From assembly GCA_965655095.1 (NCBI GenBank), contig OZ296650.1, forward strand, positions 97,960,001 through 98,024,000: a stretch of 64,000 nucleotides of DNA, given 5' to 3'. The notes beneath the pieces were generated by a model, which worked only from the letters and a program-made list of their open reading frames with translations, made no database searches and was not told where the DNA came from. How positions within the stretch are numbered: the stretch's first letter is position 1; each line of letters opens with the position of its first letter. The translations under genes were made by a program, and so were the position numbers. Shown one piece after another: positions 3,001-29,986 of the stretch. The DNA comes from Haplodiscus bocki (Eukaryota).

Positions 3001-4290
3001 CGGCCCTTTCCCCGCTGCCACCAAAGTGTATATTTGGCGAGAATGGAGCTAACAGGGAACGCAGACGCTGGGGACGTAAGCTCACAGAAAGAATCACCAT
3101 ATGCAACCCCAACGGTCGTCTTTGTTAGCGATGTGTAAAATTTATGACCAAGATAAGATTATTTCTACAGGATCGCACATTTCACAATTCTGGGCGTAAT
3201 TGCATAGATTCTTTCAGTTAAAATTTTAATTCCAGAGATTAGGGATATTCCATAATCTCAAATCAAGGCTTGAAAATTTTTCAAACTTATCATCAATGCA
3301 TTAGAGTGTTGATCACATTTCCGAGCAAGCAGGGAACGGGCCAAGTCAGCGCCGCTCGTAAAACTCAAATATCCATGGGTTGAGTTGTTTGTGGAAAATC
3401 GTGCTTTTCCGACAAAAATGGGTATAATCAAATTGTTGTGCTGGCAAAACAAACAGCCGCTCAAAACGGATAAAATTTAGGCAAAATTTGCGGATAATCA
3501 GTGCCCCCTTTACCCTTATTCCGATTTCCCGTGAATTCGGATAAATGGATTCAAAATATCCTGGGGTGTAGACTTTTATAAGTATATTGAGTGAGGAACA
3601 ACAATAAAATGAATTTTTTGTCAGCGCTCTTACTGATACTATGATTGTCTGTATGCTTCCTGTTGTACTTTGCTGCGTTTTGAAACAAATTTCAAAATTT
3701 TGCACGAAAAATTGTCGCAAGACGTCGTAGGAAAAAGCGTTTTAAAAAAAAACAAAACAGAAACCGAGTAATAATATATTTCGTAAAATTGAAATTTTCC
3801 GAAGTCTTTAAAACTGTCCTTTTTCCCGAGTTTTTTCCAAAAGAAATTGAAAATTTAATAGAGGAGCTCTTTGGCACTTCATCTACTGTCTGAGAAAGTC
3901 TTTATATCAAACATCTTTAGTACATGCCTCTGCGGAAAATTTTGGTATATGTAAAGGGGTGTCACGCAATTCTGGGCCAAAGCCCCAATGTTTTTCCTCA
4001 CCTAAATACGCGTTTTCCGTTCTTGTTATGTAATTCTGGTATCCTTCTCTAAATTGACTCTAAATTCGTAGTTTTACGTTTACGCAGTGAAAAAAACCAG
4101 TGTAATTAAATCGCCGACTAAAAACATCAATACCACTAACGAGCCTGTATTTAGGATTGTCTATGTTGAAAGTCCAAGCATAGGAGTAACAGACAGCTTC
4201 ATTGATGAGGATGACAATTCACGAACCTAATTAAAGCTTTTACTGAACACATAGGCAAAGTGAACTCTAGTGAACCAGTCGCACAAGTAT

Positions 4291-5452
4291 GGTGACAGGT
4301 CAAAATCTCCTAAGTCAAAATCTCCTAAGTCAAAATCTCCTATGCCAAAATCTCCTAAGTCAAAATCTCCTACGCCAAAATCTCCTAGGTCAAAATCTCC
4401 TAAGTCAAAATCTCCTAAGCTGAATTAATCACTCAGTAATTTAATTAATAGCTAAGTTCCATTTTCTTGTCGATTATCAAGTAAGCCTAATTTACATTCA
4501 CAAGTGACAATTAAAGTAAGTAACTAAGAGAGTACGATGGCAAAATTAACACCCTGCACAAATCGCACGCTAAAAAGGTGACAAAATGAAGCTGCGAAAG
4601 TTACTGAAATTCCAATCAATCTGATCATTCATTTAAAAATCATTTGCTGCAGATATGAGTTTCGAGTACGGTCTTTCAAACAAAAACAAAACTACCTTAA
4701 TTTATAATGGCTTGGTCCTCCCCCGGGTGCCAAAGTTGCGCACTACCCCTCGTTACTGCTCTTTTATGTAGCCATATTAGAACCATGCCCATGAAACTAC
4801 AGAGCGTGACAGAGGAACAGACCAACCTTTTAAAGGAGTAGCACTTGTCTAAATTGTTAATTGTAACTGACCCAAACTTTGGTTTTGGCTAAATGTTTTA
4901 AAATTTAGGTTTACAAAAATATTAGGTGTTTATTTCAGGGTATCTTTTTGAAAACTATTTCCTAATCGAACAGTTCACTGAGGTCTGAGTTTTGGAAGTT
5001 TGTGATTTAGAAAACTTGAGATGTTTGAAAACTTGTTATGGTATTTGCAAGTTCATGTGAATCTTCTCTTTGATTTTTTTCACCGCCATTGTAACATTAG
5101 TCCTAATGTTATTCAAAATCGATTACAGCTGCGTTGATTGACAGCGCGCACAACAGCGCAAGAAAAGCAGAAGTCTTATATTACGTAACTTTTGAGCTCA
5201 CTGCGTTGACTTGATTCATTTCGCTTTGTTTATTGTTACGCATCAACAACGAGGTTAGCTGTTTTTGAATTACGAACAACTTTCAACTTCAAGAGATAAA
5301 GAAAGTTGTTTTCCGATGAATTTTCTTTTGTTCTTTAATTTAGGAGATTTTGACTTAGGAGATTTTGACTTAGGAGATTTTGGCGTAGGAGATTTTGACT
5401 TAGGAGATTTTGGAATAGGAGATTTTGACTTAGGAGATTTTGACATGTAACC
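4291..5452. mobile_element. Non-autonomous foldback-type (Mutator/MULE-like) DNA transposon with modular terminal inverted repeats
   Basis: Exact 9-bp direct repeat CACAAGTAT at 4282-4290 and 5453-5461. The ends GGTGACAGGTCAAAATCTCC and (reverse complement) GGTTACATGTCAAAATCTCC match. Each TIR is built of 15-bp units GTCAAAATCTCCTAA: 8 on the left (4299-4418) and 7 inverted on the right (5340-5444). No internal transposase. A 9-bp TSD with tandem-repeat TIRs is the known FB/MULE pattern. Confidence 0.88.
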
Positions 5453-6841
5453 CACAAGTATAACCGATTTTGAAGGGGTCACGGTACGAAAACTACTGAT
5501 TAAACAATTAATCCAAACTTAATTAACGCAATTAATTCTTATACAATTATTTATATGTAAAAGTAACAAATGGGAACAGGTATAAGCTTCCATTTGCTTT
5601 ATATTCATATAAGCAAGCGAGCAGGCTGGAAAATGGGTCACGTGAAAAAATTTTTGCAAGAACACGGGAGCGCATGAACAAATCTTGGCAACATAACAAT
5701 GCAGGCACAAATGTGAGTTGTGAACGGATCGGAAAGAAAAAAATCTGTGACAAAACAATTTCTTGAGCAAATGTAATTAAGGTCACAGGCTTACTTTTAC
5801 CAGGTCGTTCAAAAGTCTCCATGAGCACAAAAAATATTCACTTTATTTTACAGCAGCAACTTGACAAAAATGCTGTTGATAAGTTTCGAGTTGATAGTTG
5901 TTGAACTTATTGAGCACTTTTCTTGAGACTATAAATTCATCCAGTTTTTCCGGAGGAATCAGTAGTTGCACATTTCTGACCAAGGGAAGGCCGCCTAAAA
6001 CTATCGGTCTAACCTCGAAATTTTTAAATCAAAGTCTGACGCTCAAGGGCGCGCTTTTAACCTGGCTTATATAAATAAAGTCTGAAAAATTCTGAAGTTC
6101 TCGGTAATGAGCAATAGCCTTAATGAAAATGAATGTGCAGCGATTTCTCTTCGTAATGAACGGAGACTTTTCATGAAAGATATTGATTGCATGTTGCAAC
6201 TGTTAGCACCTTTTGTGCTCTTCAATGCTAACACTGATGGCGAGGCATCTTTGCTTAGCAGACCTAAATGCGATTAAAAAAACAACCTAACTGAATTCAC
6301 GAACAAGATCTTGGTAAAGTTCAAACAGTCCCGGAAGGTAAACAATTTAATAGGAAAAAATTTTTCACGTGCATAAGAACACATGATTTTTTTAAGTTCC
6401 GTACACAATATATTTTAGAAAATTTCCTTCTTCAAATCATGTTCCTGAGACATTTCATGTAGTGTTAGACAGGCTTTTGGCGAATTGTTACACTCGTTAG
6501 TGCAAAGTGCTGCATAATAATATAGAAAACGCTTAGGAGGTATGAACTTTATTTAGGTCGGTAATTCAATGATTCATACCAAGTCATTCAGGTCAAGAAG
6601 TCAAGTTTAGAAAATTTATTTTCATTTTATTTACATGATTAGTTCATAATTCATCAGACAGATAAATACATCATTTCATACCATCACGAAAGCTTAGTTC
6701 CCAAAAAATAGACTTTACAACTTTTTGTTACAAGGACCTTTCAATCATACCAAAAATGCTTTTCGAGAAGACCAGTATTTTATACCGAGTTTAATTCACC
6801 AGGTGATCCTTTGTTTAATAACAGCTGGGTTTTTCAGTCAC

Positions 6842-7759
6842 TCAATAAATGAAGACATTTTTATGTCCAACTTTCTCCAAGTTGGTTTTGCAGGATGACG
6901 TCATAGGCGGAGGTCCACACATGACAATGAGCACATCATCTCCTGGAGGCGGCAAATGTTCTTTCATCATAGCTTCACTCACAAACCCAGTTCCGTATTG
7001 CCAGTCTTCGGGTGCATCTCTGTCCACAGTATACCACACTTTGAACCTATTCGGTTTGTGAAGAGCCAAGTCGTCAATTTCTCCTCTCAACAAAATATCA
7101 TCAGGCGTTTGGTTTCCGAAAATTAATGAAATGTGACTTTTGTCTTTGGGATTGTAAAGCATTTCTCTCACAAGTTGCAGCATGGGTGTGATGCCAGTTC
7201 CTCCGGCTATCATTCCAATTCTGCGGTAGAAAAACATCTGAGGTGGACTCGGTTTGTCGGGTTTGATTGCGTAATGACATTCGCCCTCGTAAACTATAAG
7301 ACCCCCAGGACCACGGATGTCGATGGAATCGTTGATTTGCAGATTATCCAAGTACTGGGACAGCTTACCACCGTCAGGAAACCGTGGGTTGATCCCTTTT
7401 TTGTACACTTTAATGACCAGATCGAAGAACCCAAGATCACGCTCGCATGACACAGGTGTATAAGGTCTGACCACAAGTTCACCGTGAATTCTAGCTGAAA
7501 GGTAAATATGTTTGCCAATTGGAAGACCCAGCGAATGTCCGGCAGGAATTTTGAATCGGAATCGTTTCGTGTCCGGACTGAGTTCTTCTTTGTCTACTAA
7601 AACAACTGGGTATTTCACCTGTGGGTCTTTCAACAGGACAGGCTTGGCTTTCTTCTTTGATGGGAAAAACACCACTTTGATGACGTATGCTGTGGATAAC
7701 ACTACAGCGGCGCCGGCCGTTGCGATAGCAAGTGTCGTCCAGTTTGTTGGCATTAGGAA
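6842..7759 (-). CDS. CYB5R: NADH-cytochrome b5 reductase (CYB5R family, membrane-anchored), main coding exon
   Basis: N-terminal hydrophobic anchor, FAD-binding motifs RPYTPVS and GGKLSQYL, NADH-binding GMIAGGTGITPMLQ and CGPPPM. The track start at 7768 is a TTG inside a splice acceptor (TTTGTTTCAG, AG at 7761-7760). The first in-exon ATG is at 7753. Confidence 0.95.
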   Translation of the reverse strand, partial: FLMPTNWTTLAIATAGAAVVLSTAYVIKVVFFPSKKKAKPVLLKDPQVKYPVVLVDKEELSPDTKRFRFKIPAGHSLGLPIGKHIYLSARIHGELVVRPYTPVSCERDLGFFDLVIKVYKKGINPRFPDGGKLSQYLDNLQINDSIDIRGPGGLIVYEGECHYAIKPDKPSPPQMFFYRRIGMIAGGTGITPMLQLVREMLYNPKDKSHISLIFGNQTPDDILLRGEIDDLALHKPNRFKVWYTVDRDAPEDWQYGTGFVSEAMMKEHLPPPGDDVLIVMCGPPPMTSSCKTNLEKVGHKNVFIY

Positions 7760-7879
7760 CTGAAACAAAGCAAGCAGATAATTTTATCACTACTTAATCG
7801 AAAATCAAGCCGATCGTCTCAACAAAATTGTTGGTTTCATATACTCACTGACAAACAATTCGACGAGGATTCGACAACT

Positions 7880-11859: not shown

Positions 11860-14800
11860 TTATGTTCGATGTTGAGAATGACTTTTCTCCAAAATGCCAC
11901 AGTTGAACTCTTTTAACAAGGTCTCAATTGACAACATTCAACTTGAAGAGAGCTATTCGATTTGATAACTGATCGATTTTTTTGGCCTTGGAACCCTGAT
12001 ACACTGAAAACGCCAATAAGTGCCTTTTGTTTTTAAAGATATCCAAGTTCGATAACATATTTCTGTGTAGCTACATGCTCGGTTTCTTCCGTCAATGTCT
12101 AAATTGCCAGCATTTAACTTTCAGAGGACGATGTCGGATGCAAAAATCTTGGAATTTGTTCCTTCGTCGGAATCTTGTGATGGGTCGAAGAATGCACAAA
12201 AAGTTATTAATAACGACAGATCTCGATCTTCAAACTCATATTACTCTATAGCCGTTGATTTCAAATGTTCCATCAAGGTTTTATTCAGCAGCTTACAAAT
12301 AAAAGACTATGAGAACAAAATACATACGGTGCGATTCTTCCGATGAAACCCCCCTTGTCCCAAAATTGCTTGAAATAACGAGAGCACTCTTTCAGCAAAC
12401 TCATATTCATTCGACACTCACAGCTTTGATCCAGCTGGAAAGATCTTAATCAAAAGCTCTTTCGTTGAGGAGGACTATTCGAGACGTAAATCAAGTAAGT
12501 CCTTTGTGTCAGAATGTTCATAGGCCGAAAGAAACAAAAAAAATCAAACAAAAAAGATCTCAATATTTAAAATCATATTTCTACAATACTACCAGCTTGA
12601 CGTCTACCATCGGGGCCTCAATCGTAAACATTTTACTTGAAGAAAGTTTCGAAATAGAAAAAGCCTACTTTTGGTGCTTTCAGTCGGCATGCTGATAGTA
12701 GACAATGGCAGAAACTGACATGTCTCGATATTCTAATTAATCTCTCTCGCGAACTAATGGGACGACCTCGTATTCCATCAAGTTCGCAATCATTAACTTT
12801 TTCCTTCAGCGAGACTATTCGACAGACAATTCCTTAACATCTCCCTTGCGTCAAAATCTTGAATGTCCAAACTGCCAGGCATTAATAATACTAAACTTTG
12901 ACATCTCTCGATAGTCAAGTTCAAATTTCTACTCCAATACCACCTCCCTCAAAACTGAAGAGGCCTGAGCGAACGGCTTTTAACTGAGAAGGACTCAGCA
13001 AAAGGAAAAAGACCGTTTTTTTCATTGCTTGTGAACTCAGATACACCGAAAAATGCTATTTCTAATTAAAGCTTTCGTTTTTCAAATTCAAAATTCACCA
13101 GATCCACTAGTTTGACTTTCTCTATCAGGTGTTAAATGATAACTTTATACTTGCGAGCGAAGACGCCATCACAAATCATCGGTGATGTTCGTAACGGCTG
13201 GATCCATCTAGTAAAAAAATTGCCAATAAAACTGACATAGTCTGATATTTAAACTCATATTCTCCAAAATTACAAGTTTGGCTTTTTTCAACTAGGACTC
13301 AATCAACACATTTTTGATTGAAGAGGAAGAATAAATGAAAAACGATCTTGCTCGGTGTTTCGGAATCCTGATACTCAAAAATGCCAAGTGCCAATAGCAT
13401 TAACTTATATCGATATTTAAATTCAAATTAATCCATAACTGTCGGCCTGATTTCAGCCGTCACGGTCTCAATCATGAACTTTCTTATTTTCGAGAACTAT
13501 TCGATAAAAAAATATTGGGATATGTTCATTCTGTCGGAATCCTGGTAGTCCGTAGACAGCCAAAGTGTCATTAATTTTGACATGAAACGTTTTCCATACT
13601 CAAATTTCTTTAACGCTACCTGCTTCATTCCTCCTGCGAGAGTCTGAAAGAACTTCTTTCTAGTTGGAAAGAGGACTAGGCGCCAGAAAAATCAACGAAT
13701 CCTTTTATTTGTCAAATTCTCGAGTCTGCCAAAAAAAATTCTAATGATAATTAGGGACCTCGGAATTCGAAACCATGTTTCTCCACAACTACGGCCTAAT
13801 TTTTAGCATCAAGGTCTCAATCGAGAGCTCTCTAGTCGAGGGGATAAATAGGAAAGAAAAATCATTGATTATAATATTTACATCCGAGTCGTGACAGTCC
13901 AAAAAAAAACAAAACTACCATGGACATATCCCGATATTCGAATTCAGATTTCACCATGACCAGAGGCTTGATTTCTTTCATCACGGTCTCAATCAGAAGC
14001 TTTGCACTTGAGAGAACACTGGATTAGGAAATCATCAATTTTCATCTTCCCTTCGGAATCCTGACATTTCCAAAATTGCTGGTAGTATTGACAGATCACG
14101 AATTGCAAGTTCTTCTTTCTTCAAACCTATTGCCTTGACATCTTTCCTCAGAATCTGAATCTGTAGCCTTTTACATGTTGAGAGCAATGCAATTAGAAAA
14201 TTATTGAGTTCCTCTTTTCCGTTGGAATTCTGAGATTCGAAAGGCAAAAACTGATAACAAGAATTGAAAATCTCGATTTTCGAGTTCACATTACTCCATG
14301 GCTACTGGCATCAATTCTTTCATCTACGTTCTAAGCAGCAGCTTTCTACATGTTGATGCCTATGCGATTAAAATAAACACGGTGAGATTCATTCGGTGAA
14401 ATTCCTTTTGTCCGAAAATTGCTTGAAATAACGAGAGCACTCCTTCATCAAACTCATTTTCATTCGACACTCACAGCTTCGCTCTAGCAGGAAAGGCCTC
14501 AATCAAAAGCTCCTTCATTGAGGAGGACTATTCGACAGATAAATCATCAAGTATGTCCTTTGTGTCAGAATGTTGATAGGCCAAAAGCGCCAAAAAAATC
14601 TAATAAAAAAGATCTCGATATTTAAAATCATATTTCCACAAAACTACCAGCTTGACTTCTTCCGTCAATCGTAAACTTTTTACTTGGCGAAGACTTCGAA
14701 ATATGAAAAACCTACATTTGATGCTTTCAGTTGGAAACCAAATAAAAGAAAACAGCAAAAACGCAATCAAAACTGACATGTCTCGTATTCAAATTCATTA

Positions 14801-15730
14801 TTCTGCAGAACTAATGGCACGACCTCGTATTTCATCAAGTTCTCAATCATTAACTTTTCCTTTTAGCAGGACTAGTCAACAGACAATTCTTCCAATTCGC
14901 CCTTGTTCCGAAATCTTGAATGTCCAAACTGCCAGGTGTTAATAACACTACAAACTTTGAAATATCTCGATATTCAAGTTCATATTTCTTCTTCAATACC
15001 ACCTGCTTCACTCTTGCAGATGTCTGAGTGAACGGCTTTTTACTTATGGAGGACTCTGCGTTGAAGATTTTTTCTTTGCGGTTGAATTGAGACAGACCAA
15101 AAATGCAAGAAAATGCAATTAACATTTACATATTTCGGTTTCCAAACTCATAATTCCCCAGACCCACCAGTTTGACTTCCTCCATCAGGTGTTAATTGAC
15201 AACTTTATACTTGTGAAGGAAAATGCGATCACAAATCATCGGTATTGTTCGTTCTGGCGGAATACTGTCAGAACAAATAATGCCATCAAAACTGACATAA
15301 ATTGATATTAAAACTCATATTTCACCAAAACTACAAGCTTGACTTCATCCATCAAGGATTCAATCATCACCTTTCTGCTTGAATGAAAAAAATCAATGAA
15401 AAAATGAACAATCTTGCTTGTTCTTTCGGAATTCTGATAGTCTTAGAATGCCAAGTGCTATTAATTTTGACTCATGTCGATTTTCAAATCAATATTTCTC
15501 CGTAACTATCGGCTTCATTCATTCCATCAAGGTGTTAATTGAAAGCTATCTATCTCTGGAGATTAGTTTGAGTAGGAAATCTTTGATTTTCTCTCGAACA
15601 TCATAATCCTGATACGTTGAACATGCCGAAAAATGCGTTAAGTATTGTTGTTTTGCTATATTCAAACTCATAATTTTTTAACTCTACAGACTTGAATACT
15701 TCAACAAGGTCCAATTAGACAGCTTCATTT
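11860..15730. repeat. Diverged ~171-bp tandem satellite (~22 monomers) with a ~2.05-kb higher-order duplication
   Basis: The motif ATCTCGATATTCAAACTCATA...CATCAAGGTCTCAATC...GTCGGAATCCTGA recurs at about 12220, 12390, 12555, 12722, 12905, 13075, 13242, 13410, 13586, 13757, 13930, 14096, 14270, 14440, 14611, 14780, 14964, 15133, 15302, 15476 and 15655. Block ~12350-13500 is much closer to ~14400-15600 than neighbouring monomers are to each other. Confidence 0.85.
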
Positions 15731-23210: not shown

Positions 23211-24515
23211 TTAAGGACATTTCTTTTCCACGATATTCTTACCAGTTTCTTCAAACTCTTGTTTAGAAATCCACAACTGATGGAACGAGCCAAGACTTCC
23301 CAAAATTGAGCCGCCAACCCACGTACTGAATCGCCTTTCTGCAGTTCCGCTGTTTGAAACGACCTTCAATTTCACATTAGAAGGAATTCTACTGCCCAAG
23401 TCTTTATTGAGTCTTTCAGTGAAGCCGAGAATTAAAGAGTTGCCACCAGTAACAATCACATTGCCATACAAAGCTGCCCGAATATCAATATCACACAACC
23501 CAACAGCGTTTTGCACAGCCTCGCCCATAGACAATGTTGTACTTGCAGATACACTGCCTGTACTTCCCACAGTTTTGATAGAGGAATGAGAGATGATCAT
23601 ACTGCAATCGAACAAACCCTCGGGAATTCTAAATCGCTCTTCTCCAAACGATGCATTATAGCCATTAGGAAAATCGTAAGAAACTCTTGGCATTTGCGAA
23701 ATAGATTCTTTATCATAGCACACGTCTGTATTAACTTGGAGAACACCGGCAGTGAAATCTTGTATCAAATCCTTCACCATAAAATCATGGTAAGAACATG
23801 TTGTCTTGCCAATGTTAGTTTTTTTCTTCCAAACAGGTGGTGCACCTTCGACAACCTGTTCCTTAGAGCCTACGCAATAAAGAGGGACTAATTCGACATC
23901 TGAGCTTTTGAAATACTCAATACATTGCCTAGTTATGAAGTCGCCAGCTAAAGGGCTTCTAACAATTCCATTTTTTAGAACGTAGCCGTCATGCACCGGT
24001 ACTGCAGCAGTTTGCTCGGCTCCGCTGTCAAGAACAATTCCACAAGTCCGACCATGTGCGAAGGCAGCGAGAACTGGACTTTTGACTAAGAAAAAAGCAG
24101 GGATAGAAAATTTTTCAAACATAATTTCAGTCAACTTTTCGCGGTTGGATCTGCTGTTCCAAGCTGCTTCTGACATAACTACGGGGTGGAAAGAGCTCTG
24201 CGACTGTATAGAAAATGTATATAAATGCTCCAAAATTCGTTCGAAAAGCTCCCAGTCTGAAATCATGCCATCTTTAATAAGGTTCTCAATTTCCATATTC
24301 TCGATGGGTAGACGCACTTTATTAGTTCCAATATAGTACTTTCTTCCCGATGAACCATAGTTTATATCTTCCGGGTCCAAAGTTAACACTCCAATATTGG
24401 TAGGTAGGTCGGCTTTAGGCGTGTCTTCTCCAGCGAATCCAGCTCTGATACTATTGGACCCGAAATCAAAAACAACGCCTCCGATCTCATCTCCCCCGTA
24501 AATTCCACCACTCAT
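23211..24515 (-). CDS. ACTL6: Actin-like protein 6 (BAF53/Arp4), subunit of BAF, INO80 and NuA4 complexes
   Basis: 434-aa intact ORF beginning MSGGIYGGDEIGGVVFDFGS, with RAGFAGEDTPK, ERFRIPEGLFD and a C-terminus ERRFSTWVGGSILGSLGSFHQLWISKQEFEE...EKKCP. These termini are characteristic of BAF53/Arp4. Confidence 0.96.
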   Translation of the reverse strand: MSGGIYGGDEIGGVVFDFGSNSIRAGFAGEDTPKADLPTNIGVLTLDPEDINYGSSGRKYYIGTNKVRLPIENMEIENLIKDGMISDWELFERILEHLYTFSIQSQSSFHPVVMSEAAWNSRSNREKLTEIMFEKFSIPAFFLVKSPVLAAFAHGRTCGIVLDSGAEQTAAVPVHDGYVLKNGIVRSPLAGDFITRQCIEYFKSSDVELVPLYCVGSKEQVVEGAPPVWKKKTNIGKTTCSYHDFMVKDLIQDFTAGVLQVNTDVCYDKESISQMPRVSYDFPNGYNASFGEERFRIPEGLFDCSMIISHSSIKTVGSTGSVSASTTLSMGEAVQNAVGLCDIDIRAALYGNVIVTGGNSLILGFTERLNKDLGSRIPSNVKLKVVSNSGTAERRFSTWVGGSILGSLGSFHQLWISKQEFEETGKNIVEKKCP

Positions 24516-25823
24516 TAAGCACTAAAATTGGCGACTCGTTCGAATTCCTTCGTCAATCTAAGATACTTTAGTTTTTTATTTTTCACCCATATTTAAATAT
24601 GGAAGGAAAATCATCCACTCAACGTGTGCCTTCTTTACGTTCACTAGCCAATTGCACAAGATTTGGACCATTTTGAATTTGAAAAATTCATGAGACCAAA
24701 TTATAGCAAATTTGCGGTAGAATGCAAATGAAATAGTAGGGTTTCGTAAAAATGAACGAAAATAGTTTTTATAGTCAAAAAAGTTTTGATTATTTCGATA
24801 AAAACAAAATTGGGAAACAGTAGATTTGATATAGAACGCAAACAGAACAGTATTTTTCCTCAAAAGGCAATTTGAACAAAGTTGCATGGCGAAAAAAACC
24901 CCAGTGGTAGCCAGCTGTCGTGTATTGAATTAATTCTTGCAATAGATGTCTAAGTAAGTGGATATTCTTACCTCCGAATTTGCATTTTAGCCTCATAGCC
25001 ACAATTTTTCTCATCTCCAAAAGCAAGATTATTGCAAAATCAATCAAACAGCTTTCCATAATAAACATTTTGTCAATAATTCATGAGTGAATGGTTTGTA
25101 CAGCCTCAATTTGAAAGTTTAAGGTCTCCTTCCTTGAAGTCCAAATCATTCCACCCTTCACAGCTGATTGTTATTCGCATTCTAGAGGGTCTGTCAAAAG
25201 CATGACACTTCTGCGGAAGCGCTAGGGACTGTGCGTTATAATAAAATGACATGGTATCGGAAAGAAGTCCGGGTGGTCTACTCACTCCTTGAATCAAAAA
25301 CAGCATTTCGATTTTAATCTATCGCCAGGAATTCCATGGTAATCTTTTTTCGCAAATGTTTTTTTTCATGATATTCATCACTATTTTCTACTTGTTTTAG
25401 AAATTACGAACAAGAAAAAGAATTTAAATTCTCTGATGAGCAATTAGAAAATAACACTATTATAGAATAATACAAATAACACCAATTACATGTAGATATA
25501 TAATATAAATAGCACCATCAGAGGGGAGCCTCCAAAGTATGAAATGAAGACCCGACTAAGGGTAACAGCACATGATGAGCAATCTCATTGAAAAATTATA
25601 TTTGAAATTTGATCTTTTACTATTACATGTAGCATGTGTTTTAATGTTTTACGCTTGATTTTTATCCAAAAAATCAACTGTACACAAACCTGTTTCTAAT
25701 AATCAAATGACCAGCTTTGCAACTTTGTGACGCAAAGAAATATACCTAACAGCGTGATTCATTTGGTAAAGAAAAAAGGTTAGGTTGAGCTTTTCTGGTT
25801 TGAACAATAGATACTTTGCGCTC

Positions 25824-26089: not shown

Positions 26090-28600
26090 TTAGCCTCGAA
26101 CGGCGAAGAAGGCAACGGTTGAATAGGCTGTCTGGCTGGTATTCGGAAGTTTCAAGGTTTCTGATTCATCGATTGTCGAAAGGCTACTAGTCCCCTGAAC
26201 GTCAACAGCTCTCTTCGTGACATCCGGTACTGAAGAGTCAGCATCATCAGGTACCAGTACGTCCTTCCCAGACCCTGATCTTCCATCTGTGCTCTCAGCA
26301 GTAGTTCCTCTCGCGACATATTTCGTATTCACTGTATCCACGGTGTTCTTGTCCGTATATGCCACTACAGCATGGTGAGGTGACAAAACTTTGACAACTG
26401 TAGCTGGCTGTACTAACGGATCGTCCTTAGAAGTCTTGTTGAAGTTCTTCACGTATATCGGCTCGCCAGCTCTCATCCAGGCGGGCGTCAATGTAGGGCT
26501 CAAACGAGTAGTCATCTGTTCTTTCTGCAGATCGAGTGATGATCTCCTGCTGAATCCAAAGAATCGATTATGAGGTGACTCGAAACCTATAGCACAACTT
26601 CCTAATGAACGAACGTTCACCAATGCTGCGGGTAACTCTTCATCCCATAATACAATCGACTTGCTAGACAGTTTTAGACGTAGCTTCACAGTTCTCCAAA
26701 TGATACCATTGACACGCTCACATTGACCATTTCCGGCTGGGTTGTACGGGGTTGTTCGAGTCTTCCGGACGTTCCACCGTTCCAGAAAAGATCTGAAGTC
26801 GTGACTCTCGAATACACTTCCGCGGTCAGAGTGCACCGATTCAGGTGGACCGAATAACATGAACAACTGGTTTAATGCTTTGATCGTATTAGCTGTAGTT
26901 CCCTCTTTCATAGCAAAGGCAAAAGGGAATCGTGAGAATTCGTCGACGACCGTCAAGAAATAACAGTTTCCACCTTTCGATGGCTTCTTAAGGCCGACAA
27001 AATCGATGGAAATCCGTTCCCATGGAGTAGACGACGTCACTAGATGATTTACTGGTGGACTGTGAAATCGTGGCTTCAGCTCTAAACACACTTGGCACTT
27101 CTCAATGTGTTGTTTCACCTTTGACTGTAAACCTGGAATATCAGCAATCCGCTGGATGAACCCCACTGTTCGGGCAACCTCAGGATGACCCATCTTGTCA
27201 TGAACTTGGGATAAAATATAGTCAATGTTTCCCGAAATAAATGGTTTCTCTAAGTCTGCATCGGCATAGGCGAATTCACGGCTCATGGCATCCGCCACGG
27301 TATTCAACCTTCCTGCTCGATATTGTATATCGAAAGTATATTCCGATAAAGCAAGCCTCCAGCGGCAGAGTTTGCTGTTCTTGATAGAGGACTTTGGCCT
27401 GCTATCGAAGAGGTATGAAACTCCCTGCTGGTCTGTAATAATTGTAAATTTCGACCCAAGAAGATATTGCCTGCATTTCTGTGTGCACCAGACTATAGCG
27501 TATGCCTCCTTCTCGATGGCAGACCAATGCTTCTCTTGGTCGGATAGTTTGTGAGATACAAACGCAACAGGCCTACCTTCCTGGGAGAGAACTCCTCCGA
27601 GTGCTGTACCAGAAGCATCGGTTTCCAAGATGAACGGTTTTTGTCTATACGGTATCCAGAGGATAGCTTTCGCAACTGCCTTCTTGATGTCATCAATGCA
27701 ATCAAGAGCGTCTTTCTGCAACGGCAATAGGCCATCCGTTCTGGCAATAAATAGAGGTTCCGCAAATTTTGAAAACTTCGGAATCCACTTCGAATAATAG
27801 ACACTAAGGCCGACAAACCTTTCTAGTTCCTTCATGGTCGAAGGGGTTGGAAAATTTAGCAATGGCTCCCAGCGCGAACTGTCGGGACTGACCGTGCCCT
27901 TGTGAAAGTGGTGTCCTAGAAACTTTAGGTCCTGTGTATTGAATTTGCACTTGGCCTCGTTCAGCACCAAGCCGAACTATTTCGCTCTTGCTATGAACGC
28001 TTGTAAATTAGCGTCGTGCTCGGCTTTCGTCGTACCTCCAACGACCACGTCATCGATGTCAGCTACAACACCGACCAAACCATCGATTATCCTGTCGATG
28101 GTTCTTTGGAAAGCAGGAACTCCATTCGTAACTCCAAACGCAAGGCGCGTAAACTGGTAAAGTTTCCCATTAGCTTCGAATGCCGTTACTGGCTGCTCCA
28201 CCTTCCGCAAACGCAACTGGTGGTATGCGGATTTCAAATCAATGTATGAGTACCACTTCCAATTGCTAACCCTTGAAAGCAACTCGTCTATTACAGGAAT
28301 CGGATAAACATCCGGGATAGTAAACCGATTTAGAGTGGAAGCGTAATCAATGCAAAGTCTCTTCTTGTGGTTAGCAGTCGTGCTAATAACCACCTGTGAG
28401 CGCCAAGGGGACTGGGATTCTTCAATGATCCCCGTTTTCAGCAACTTCGCTATCTCGCCTGCAATAAACTGCTTGTCTGACTCCGTCCTGAATCGGGAAG
28501 GGCAACGGACAGGACTTGCGTCCTCCGTCAAAGTAATAATCGGGAATGGATCAATTTTCACCCAACCAGTTGTCTCATCAGAAGACGAGTCACTACACAA
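26090..28600 (-). pseudogene. pol: pol (RT-RNase H-integrase) with an in-frame TAG at 27977-27979 and a mutated RT catalytic motif
   Basis: RT motifs RLCIDY, IDLKSAYHQ, RLAFGVTNGVPAFQR and DIDD in place of YxDD. RNase H ETDASG...EKEAYAI...TDQQ. Integrase HHCC (HDKMGH...CQVC) and D-D-E (SIDF, SDRG, GQCER). The two track ORFs are one frame: AAA TAG TTC GGC TTG. Confidence 0.93.
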
Positions 28601-29777
28601 TCAGAGGCGGTGCCAACCTTCCATAGTTTATCGTAAGTGACTGAAATTTCGCTAGGGCTGAGGACCCAAGGATAGCTGAGTCGCATAGCTGCTCGGCGAC
28701 AAATACCACTTCGGAAAACGTGATTTCCTTGATACTCATGCGAACCTTCGCTCTCCCAATGATCGCGAGTCCATTGTTTGACACTGATCTAACTTTGGAT
28801 CCCTTTACCGGCTTGTATGGTATCTGCTGCTCCTTGGCAAATTTCTTGTCAACCACAGAGATGTCACTGCCGCAATCAAGCAACCATGGCTTTTCAGTAC
28901 CCTTGATTAACACGTTCACGAATCTGCGTTCCCGCTTTTTGAAGGATAAACCCGCCACCACGTCTGAATCGTCGGATTGTCCAGCTACAGCAGCAACGTT
29001 CTTTGTAGACATGCATACAGCTTTTAGGTGACCCACACGCCCACACTTGTGGCATTTTCTTTCCTTGGCGGGACAATCAGCTTTGCCATGCAAGGTAGAC
29101 GATCCGCACCAGTGATAACGACGTTTGCCACCAGATGATCCTTCCTTCTTAGCGAACTTGGATAAACCCGGTCGGTGTTTGTTGGCAGCTACAGCAACTA
29201 ACTCCACAGGTCCGCTGGATTGCTGGGCGGCTTCCTCCACTTCCGCTGCCGAAACTGCATCGTCCAATGAAAATGCTTGTCCTTTCTGATTAGCTGCTGC
29301 GAATCCTCTGCAAAGGGCTCGTTTGGTTGTGTCCGTTTGCAGTCCTTGGCAAAGGGCGTCGCGAAGGGCCTCGTTTGAAATTGCGTTTGGAAAGTTGCAG
29401 AATTTCGCAATTTGTCGTAATTCGCTGAGAAAGTCATTCAGCGACTGGTTAGATTTCTGCTTTGTAGAATAAAGTTTGATTCTCTCGCATAAAATATTTC
29501 TGCCCGCAGAGAACTTCGATGTAACAAACTCCACTGCACGTGAATATTCGGTAATCCCAGCGTCTGTCTGCGCTTGAGTCAGGTCCGGCCATGTCACTTC
29601 GTTGTAAAACTTGGCTGCTTTGTTGCCTGCACATAGCAAGAATAATTCCAGCTTGTCGTTGTCATTCGGCTTCGTAACTTTGATATATCGCGTGAATTGA
29701 GATAACCAAAGATTGTAAGATTCCAAGTCGCCACCGTCGAATGTTGGAGCGTGGAGAGAAAACTTCGCCGACCTCAT
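28593..29777 (-). CDS. gag: gag-protease ORF of the gypsy element
   Basis: 394 aa. Tandem zinc knuckles: the first degenerate (YHWCG...H...C), the second intact (CHKCGRVGHLKAVC). Aspartic protease LLDCGSDIS...ILG. pol continues in the +1 frame at the stop. Confidence 0.9.
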   Translation of the reverse strand: MRSAKFSLHAPTFDGGDLESYNLWLSQFTRYIKVTKPNDNDKLELFLLCAGNKAAKFYNEVTWPDLTQAQTDAGITEYSRAVEFVTSKFSAGRNILCERIKLYSTKQKSNQSLNDFLSELRQIAKFCNFPNAISNEALRDALCQGLQTDTTKRALCRGFAAANQKGQAFSLDDAVSAAEVEEAAQQSSGPVELVAVAANKHRPGLSKFAKKEGSSGGKRRYHWCGSSTLHGKADCPAKERKCHKCGRVGHLKAVCMSTKNVAAVAGQSDDSDVVAGLSFKKRERRFVNVLIKGTEKPWLLDCGSDISVVDKKFAKEQQIPYKPVKGSKVRSVSNNGLAIIGRAKVRMSIKEITFSEVVFVAEQLCDSAILGSSALAKFQSLTINYGRLAPPLIV

Positions 29778-29781
29778 GAAA

Positions 29782-29797
29782 ACGTTCGTGCCAGTAA
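29782..29797 (-). promoter_or_regulatory. Primer-binding site complementary to LTR positions 29901-29916 (candidate self-priming PBS)
   Basis: Minus strand TTACTGGCACGAACGT begins after a 2-nt spacer beyond the 5' LTR end. It forms a perfect 14-nt inverted repeat with the LTR, extendable to 16 with one G-U pair. Confidence 0.75.
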
Positions 29798-29799
29798 AC

Positions 29800-29986
29800 T
29801 GTTGTGATCTCTAATACTCGAACGATAACCAGAGCTAGGTAATCTTGAAGGAAACAATTGCTTGCAAAGATTCAACTCACTATATGTATATATTTATATA
29901 TTACTGGCACGAACATGTCACTGAAAACAAAACAACACTTTATATATGATCAACCGTATCAACTAATAATAGATATAGTCACCACT
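29800..29986 (-). repeat. 5' LTR (187 bp) with TATA box at 29946-29939
   Basis: Direct repeat of 25824-26010. The terminal TG is mutated to AG. TATATAAA on the minus strand. Confidence 0.97.

Follow-up and report, generated by a model that had tools for sequence, protein, structure and literature searches.

The window, that is, the whole 64,000-nucleotide stretch of Haplodiscus bocki DNA analysed here, contains a Gypsy LTR element of 4163 bp (~4.2 kb). The element and all of its features given below lie on the minus strand. It is flanked by 5-bp target site duplications (left copy 29991-29987, right copy 25823-25819) and bounded by two LTRs of 187 nt each (5′ LTR, 29986-29800; 3′ LTR, 26010-25824). 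The LTRs show three differences, one of which is the first base: the 3′ LTR has the form TG...CA, and the 5′ LTR ends in CA but has another base in place of the usual initial T. Within the 5′ LTR, the sequence TATATAAA, reported in a first-pass annotation of this DNA and found at 29946-29939, is a candidate TATA-like box, but may instead be an AT-rich outron. It is followed by a T-rich tract ending in AG (29921..29937, AG at 29922-29921), which is the splice acceptor for a host leader in three family copies and can also be read as an initiator-like motif. The first 20 nt past this acceptor form the primer arm (29901..29920), of which positions 29916-29901 pair with a self-complementary, 16-nt PBS (29797-29782), separated from the LTR end by a 2-nt spacer (29799-29798).

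The coding region comprises gag, with tandem Cys/His knuckles, and protease (28593..29777; ATG 5 nt past the PBS), the N-terminal part of RT up to an in-frame stop (27977..28600), and the C-terminal part of RT with RNase H and integrase (26090..27976), which has no chromodomain or Tf2-type SH3 match. A polypurine tract of 17 purines (26027-26011) adjoins the 3′ LTR. The window copy is broken, with a frame break near 28600 between protease and RT, and a second lesion in the form of the in-frame stop in RT (27979-27977).

Elsewhere in the window, a 15-nt unit is present in two inverted, foldback-like arrays ~920 nt apart (4284-5472), and a diverged duplication with a spacing of ~2055 nt has subrepeats inside it (12208-15549). 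Open frames of 436 and 313 aa are found at 23211-24521 (minus strand) and 6842-7783 (minus strand), respectively.

Pairing between the LTR and the PBS

Re-reading of the sequence bears out the annotated positions of arm, spacer, and PBS, as well as the proposed duplex of 16 pairs (14 Watson-Crick, one G-U, and one A-U). In folding calculations, the arm/PBS pairing is the minimum-energy helix and dominates the ensemble, with an inner pair probability of ~1.0. When the LTR was dinucleotide-shuffled 2000 times, the best helix had a mean of 7.1 pairs and a maximum of 15, and the absence of any shuffle reaching 16 (0/2000) rules out a chance origin. For Watson-Crick pairs only, the mean of 2000 shuffles is 5.2 and the maximum 10, with 0/2000 reaching 14. 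The arm/PBS complementarity is beyond chance, and the feature is real. The annotation had further placed the 5′ end of the RNA at 29916. The pairing of ordinary copies of the same family (family A) stops exactly at this position, 30 nt from the TATA-like box, which fits such a start; 29916 as a transcription start is a prediction rather than an observation.

A DNA search of the genome with the LTR gave 35 matches to family A, of which 30 were fetched and 19 contained a PBS junction; these junctions are partly dependent, with L010/L011 being a local duplication and L009/L012 a tandem. Pairing is as in the window in 9/19, includes one or two extra wobbles or mismatches in 7/19, and is perfect in the remaining three (L017, L019, and L025). 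The G-U pair is kept in 15 of the 16 ordinary copies. The extra wobbles or mismatches of the seven junctions are not compensated, and in L005/L029 both LTRs have a change in the arm to which the PBS shows no counterpart; both observations count against the self-priming reading. The sole compensatory change within the family is that of L019, in which an arm change is matched by a complementary PBS change (the 3′ LTR of L019 was not recovered). At another locus (L222, G000:C1:27405000-27414900), two family A elements stand in tandem and share one LTR, resembling the integrase-independent tandems described for Tf1.

Sister families and the tRNA test

An RT search identified three related groups in the genome, and a second genome search revealed no further family of the clade. 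Family B is ~65% identical in RT to the window element, and its LTR and PBS are unrelated to those of family A. It has a 2-nt spacer, a 12-nt PBS, and a perfect 12-bp arm that opens at an acceptor AG preceded by a pyrimidine tract. Full pairing is observed in 8/9, 34/35, and 2/2 in separate sets, the second of which comprised 37 stretches, two of them without LTR. Family C (~44% RT identity) has no self-complement, with at most six self-pairs in the eight copies, out of 11, that have resolved LTRs. Most of its copies have TGG 2 nt past the LTR, and in the three copies tested the PBS shows matches of 11, 14, and 19 nt to a tRNA-Ser cluster. The family C tRNA pattern has 328 genome matches against 15 for the control, so that family C carries the marks of a tRNA-primed element and serves as the positive control. 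A large tRNA-Ser tandem cluster (G000:C1:26317918 onward, L199-L206) accounts for most of the 328 matches. A high-copy Gypsy family with an 1847-aa pol was also encountered (L241:1804-7344, L243); it shows a weak Macro-domain match in the protease-RT interval (E 3e-4, just under the Pfam cut-off).

Comparison of the PBS with host tRNA 3′ ends, one of the checks proposed with the annotation, gave a different outcome for family A than for this control. Targeted tRNA patterns were used in place of a genome-wide scan (63 candidates scored); an exact canonical T-arm plus 7 exact nt was required, and the test covers 3′-end matches only. For genes ending as the family A PBS requires there were nine matches against six for the control, and 0/9 are tRNAs, whereas family C matches tRNA-Ser. 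The window element thus lacks the features of tRNA-primed Ty3/gypsy elements, namely TGG ~2 nt from the LTR and a tRNA match of 10-18 nt. It had been suggested that the arm is a captured tRNA-end mimic, in which case a host tRNA would prime at the TGG inside the PBS. Such a TGG exists (29793-29791) and the sister family does use tRNA-Ser; however, it lies 6 nt from the LTR end, compared with 2 nt in family C, the required 7 nt were found at the end of no tRNA gene, and neither family B nor any of the 13 metagenome junctions described below has a TGG. The mimic is largely refuted by these results and has scarcely any probability left.

Self-pairing in a wide animal clade

Metagenome searches yielded 79 loci, 32 of which include 1.5 kb upstream of pol. 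Thirteen of the 32 have a junction, one (L116) has an ambiguous 12-bp match, and 18, which are truncated or decayed, have none. Seven junctions are fixed by an LTR pair, independently of the hairpin; all seven self-pair (8-16 bp, 1-2 nt past the LTR), six of them with 12 or more pairs. The six junctions located by a hairpin search have 9-16 pairs, which is circular as a count, yet they contribute further unrelated sequences. Shuffling gave 0/200 for 11 junctions and 1/200 for the other two. Complementarity in related families, another check proposed with the annotation, is therefore kept with unrelated letters in family B and 13 metagenome relatives, and on this comparison self-pairing appears to characterize a wide clade of animal elements. 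A lone origin in the window element, as first envisaged, is rejected because the pairing is spread across this clade. Many metagenome arms start away from any acceptor, and many have an AATAAA-like hexamer at their end. In nine relatives (L119, L121, L123, L125, L128, L130, L141, L146, and L169) the arm end TAAA is followed by ACC or GCC, possibly a cleavage-site motif or poly(A) signal.

Families A and B and the metagenome relatives form one clade in trees (SH-aLRT 96 in a 66-row quick tree), with family C as its sister (99). The same clade receives 79/83 in a 22-row RT-RH tree, and support for monophyly is moderate. In-genome elements with a Tf2-type SH3, which have no chromodomain, were used as outgroups. 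Inside the clade, these trees, which contain no named reference elements, also place database proteins with the labels isopod, aphid, moth, and sea anemone; the ESM Atlas provides only generic names for the clade. In one database protein (P0037) the clade pol is fused to a HECT domain, which is probably a gene-model fusion.

Tandem knuckles and tRNA priming are traits of the Mag lineage. The window element has tandem Cys/His knuckles in Gag, the domain order PR-RT-RH-IN, and no chromodomain, and probably belongs to the Mag lineage of Ty3/gypsy, named Mag references being absent from the trees. The Ty3 RT scores 84 bits, about as low as distant Gypsy families here (in a different database), and family C ~150. 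The tandem knuckles and the missing chromodomain had both been recognized in the first-pass annotation and are borne out by Pfam: no chromodomain or Tf2-type SH3 matches at E<0.1 in the window, and none is found in P0001, P0003, P0004, P0023, and P0037 or in the precomputed Pfam lists of 120 relatives. On account of its domains (the defining one being absent), its hosts, and its tRNA-primed sister group, the element is not placed among the Tf1/sushi chromoviruses, of which the trees contain no references.

Copies bearing the host spliced leader

In the three perfectly pairing family A copies (L017, L019, and L025), the LTR complement reaches as far as 29922; 30 nt of non-element sequence come next, after which each copy resumes at a separate internal site. 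Both LTRs and target duplications are present in L017 and L025. The two L025 junctions are bridged in one of four contig runs from a single study, which resemble DNA rather than RNA data (records 3 and 4; the run may be that of the source sample); the bridging argues against an assembly error. The same locus includes a two-LTR mini element of 541 nt with a target duplication (L025:1467-2007, G000:C8:44235096-44235636), which is TRIM-like, was seen in one copy, and has a short interior that opens with PBS and anti-leader.

Read on the opposite strand, the non-element sequence is a 32-nt unit with an AG end. It has 1264 genome matches at ≤1 mismatch, arrays included, against 0 for the control, and all 30 of the matches read (30/30) show it at the front of varied sequences, where its 5′ edge is sharp. 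The unit followed by a GT donor gives 705 matches; eight of the 30 read lie in a 2-kb tandem array, the units of which contain the leader, GTAAG, stem-loops, and a U-rich, Sm-like site (the last identified by eye). An array of ~2-kb tandem units with a spliced-leader RNA gene in each begins at G000:C9:72473751 (L103-L110), and the unit tested (L104) also holds a 5S rRNA gene. The published acoel leader is identical to the 31 3′-most nt of the 32-nt unit (PMC9911081), which makes an acoel host, or a host with the same leader, probable. With a multicopy gene, a GT donor, stem-loops, and a leader on unrelated 5′ ends, the sequence has the properties of a spliced-leader RNA, and the captured 32 nt are the host spliced leader. 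Many unrelated repeat families in this genome open exactly with the spliced leader, as leader-capped retrocopies (L031-L060, L261-L290).

Leader-bearing copies number six in two families (A, 3/19; B, 3/46). Two of those in family B were selected by a targeted pattern, and the third turned up unasked. All six are rearranged: each has the PBS, then anti-arm and anti-leader, then a jump to a different site, and five contain the full 32 nt of the leader. Two family B copies have the PBS and full anti-leader and resume via microhomologies of 6 nt and 3 nt. In L310:234-290, also of family B, the PBS and 26 nt of anti-leader come before another U5 end, to which a normal PBS is attached, so that L310 reads as a primer copy and a template PBS in tandem. 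The family B PBS matches the leader end for 2 nt beyond the arm (9/9). No further family yielded such copies among 30 other leader matches or among 30 read of the 53 from a second search.

These fossils, which are DNA copies, place the arm immediately after the leader, with the join at 29920. The anti-arm and anti-leader behind the PBS indicate that leader-capped element RNA, joined at this position, served as a template and was reverse transcribed; most simply, it would also have acted as the primer. The trace of primer copying would look no different from that of a plus strand switching to leader-capped RNA that had not been cut, and an error-prone minority form of the RNA may be the source of the leader copies. 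Since 29916 lies downstream of the acceptor at 29922-29921, one molecule cannot have both 5′ ends, and, judged from these copies, the start at 29916 cannot apply to leader-bearing molecules. A TATA-driven start is possible.

Two further explanations have to be weighed at this point. Self-priming might proceed from a promoter-set cap, either at 29916 (TATA) or at 29922 (initiator-like), with leader RNA as a read-through side product that gives rise to defective copies only. The pyrimidine tract and AG placed directly at the arm in both host families oppose this, as do the lack of a TATA box at −30 in family B, the two additional leader bases matched by its PBS, and a frequency of leader copies (3/19 and 3/46) too high for a rare form. 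It is consistent with the end of ordinary family A pairing 30 nt from the TATA box, with the 12 nt paired in family B counted from the A of the initiator-like motif, with the rearranged state of all six leader copies, and with the many metagenome arms that begin away from acceptors, but is considered unlikely. The second explanation is that the duplex is regulatory (hiding of the 5′ LTR poly(A) signal, packaging, or dimerisation), that another RNA primes, and that leader copies are products of template switching. While the hexamers at the ends of metagenome arms, a pairing partner downstream of the LTR that is present at the 5′ end only, and the commonness of leader-capped retrocopies in this genome all agree with it, the helix ends 1-2 nt from the LTR end in 15/15 self-pairing rows, exactly where a primer must end, no alternative primer site is present, and the other leader matches (0/30 and 0/30) lack the combination of PBS and anti-leader. 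This second possibility is judged very improbable as a replacement for priming, although regulatory and priming roles of the duplex are not exclusive.

Discussion

The best explanation, which is held to be probable, is that minus-strand DNA is primed by the cut-off 5′ end of the element's own RNA, carrying a trans-spliced leader in this host. Confidence is high for self-priming as such, and more guarded, though still favourable, for the leader-bearing form as the usual route. Self-priming outside the chromoviruses was the central proposal of the first-pass annotation; it is well supported by pairing that is kept with changed letters, by the lack of a fitting tRNA gene, and by six copies of arm plus leader, while the 5′ end, the tRNA mimic, and the lone origin have been revised.

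RNA from an upstream start in the LTR would be joined at the acceptor (29922-29921) to the host leader of 32 nt, as indicated by the DNA fossils. The arm would then fold onto the PBS, 2 nt beyond the LTR end, a pairing for which computation and covariation argue. By analogy with Tf1, a cut after 29901 by RNase H would yield a 3′-OH and a leader-plus-arm primer of 52 nt (42 nt in family B), the extension of which would cross the spacer into U5. The plus strand would subsequently copy the retained primer up to the cap, and the leader part, having no minus-strand partner, would form an unpaired flap that is normally lost. Flap loss would restore the template PBS, which fits the retention of the G-U pair in ordinary family A copies, and occasional annealing of the leader flap elsewhere may have produced the six rearranged copies. 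In other hosts, the arms of relatives probably start at the transcription start itself or close to it.

The experimental demonstration of self-priming comes from Tf1 of fission yeast; for other elements it has mostly been predicted on the basis of complementarity. The window element displays the Tf1-type hallmarks, a PBS complementary to its own LTR with the complementarity ending at the LTR boundary, and no tRNA 3′-end complement, and by analogy would work like Tf1, including the RNase H cut. Both signs of self-priming are missing from Dictyostelium Skipper (PMC5006619). Beyond Tf1, it has been proposed that Tj1 and relatives, which range from fungi to vertebrates, are self-primed as well (PMC4600332). 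Tf1 and Tf2 of Schizosaccharomyces pombe, Tj1 of S. japonicus, and Tf1/sushi elements likewise have an LTR-adjoining PBS complementary to a 5′ segment of their own RNA; in Tf1, Tj1, and sushi elements cleavage is needed, and the end of the cDNA contains a DNA copy of the primer (PMC4600332, PMC11042837). In Tf1 particles, a single-stranded DNA copy of the PBS is retained on about half of the cDNA (PMC11042837). In contrast to Tf1/sushi elements, the clade described here lacks a chromodomain and Tf2-type SH3, has tandem knuckles, and occurs in invertebrate hosts, and its nearest sister family is tRNA-Ser primed. A further difference from Tf1 is that the 5′ part of the primer likely comes from the host, as its spliced leader, and not from the start of the element itself.

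Self-priming was already predicted from PBS-LTR complementarity for moss Tcn1 and for the Ty1/copia TAR elements Houba and Osr-1, and the TAR prediction implies that it also arose outside the chromoviruses (PMC6317226). TAR elements and Tcn1 are plant elements that belong to another superfamily or to a chromovirus clade, and have no trans-splicing; the accessible text of PMC6317226 contains no fossil primer copy. Chromoviruses are described as absent from protostomes, echinoderms, and urochordates, and Mag as the oldest metazoan lineage (PMC2774666), within which clades A, B, and C have been described (PMC6238403). The clade of the window element has in common with the Mag lineage (Mag, CFG1, Gulliver, Hydra2-1, and SURL) a pan-metazoan spread (PMC2774666, PMC6238403) and short LTRs. 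No description of self-priming for this lineage was found in the accessible parts of the literature searched. The Gypsy element Cer1 of C. elegans has RNA that receives a spliced leader; in that case, however, the leader is carried by spliced subgenomic RNA only, the genomic RNA is without it, and the PBS fits tRNA-Pro (PMC3315495).

The accessible portions of PMC6934838, PMC3601003, PMC13524379, and PMC4402516 offer no precedent. In the literature searched, outside subscription journals, Repbase, and GyDB pages, the titles, abstract openings, and accessible passages yielded no report of self-priming for this clade and none of a leader-bearing primer. Some Oikopleura Tor elements are said to have a PBS complementary to SL RNA, which, if true, would be the nearest precedent, with a different primer. 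What is likely new here is the wide animal clade, a primer that likely includes the host leader, and genomic fossils of the primer. The broader statement, that a non-chromovirus Gypsy clade of pan-metazoan spread does without tRNA in priming, that its primer here joins host leader and element RNA in a chimera, the 5′ end of which is set by spliced-leader trans-splicing, and that the frozen copies are the genomic proof, is leaned towards with some caution.

With six genomic records of primer-site copying, a prediction becomes a sharply testable claim, which takes the form of leader-capped RNAs of 52 nt and 42 nt and a new 5′ end at 29900. tRNA-free priming would be extended to a widespread animal Gypsy clade, and because a tRNA-primed sister family resides in the same genome, the switch in priming is open to study. 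Trans-splicing would be tied to reverse transcription, and a fixed acceptor would free the 5′ side of the primer from the position of the transcription start. Such elements would presumably be missed by tRNA-based PBS filters and by tRNA-fragment defences.
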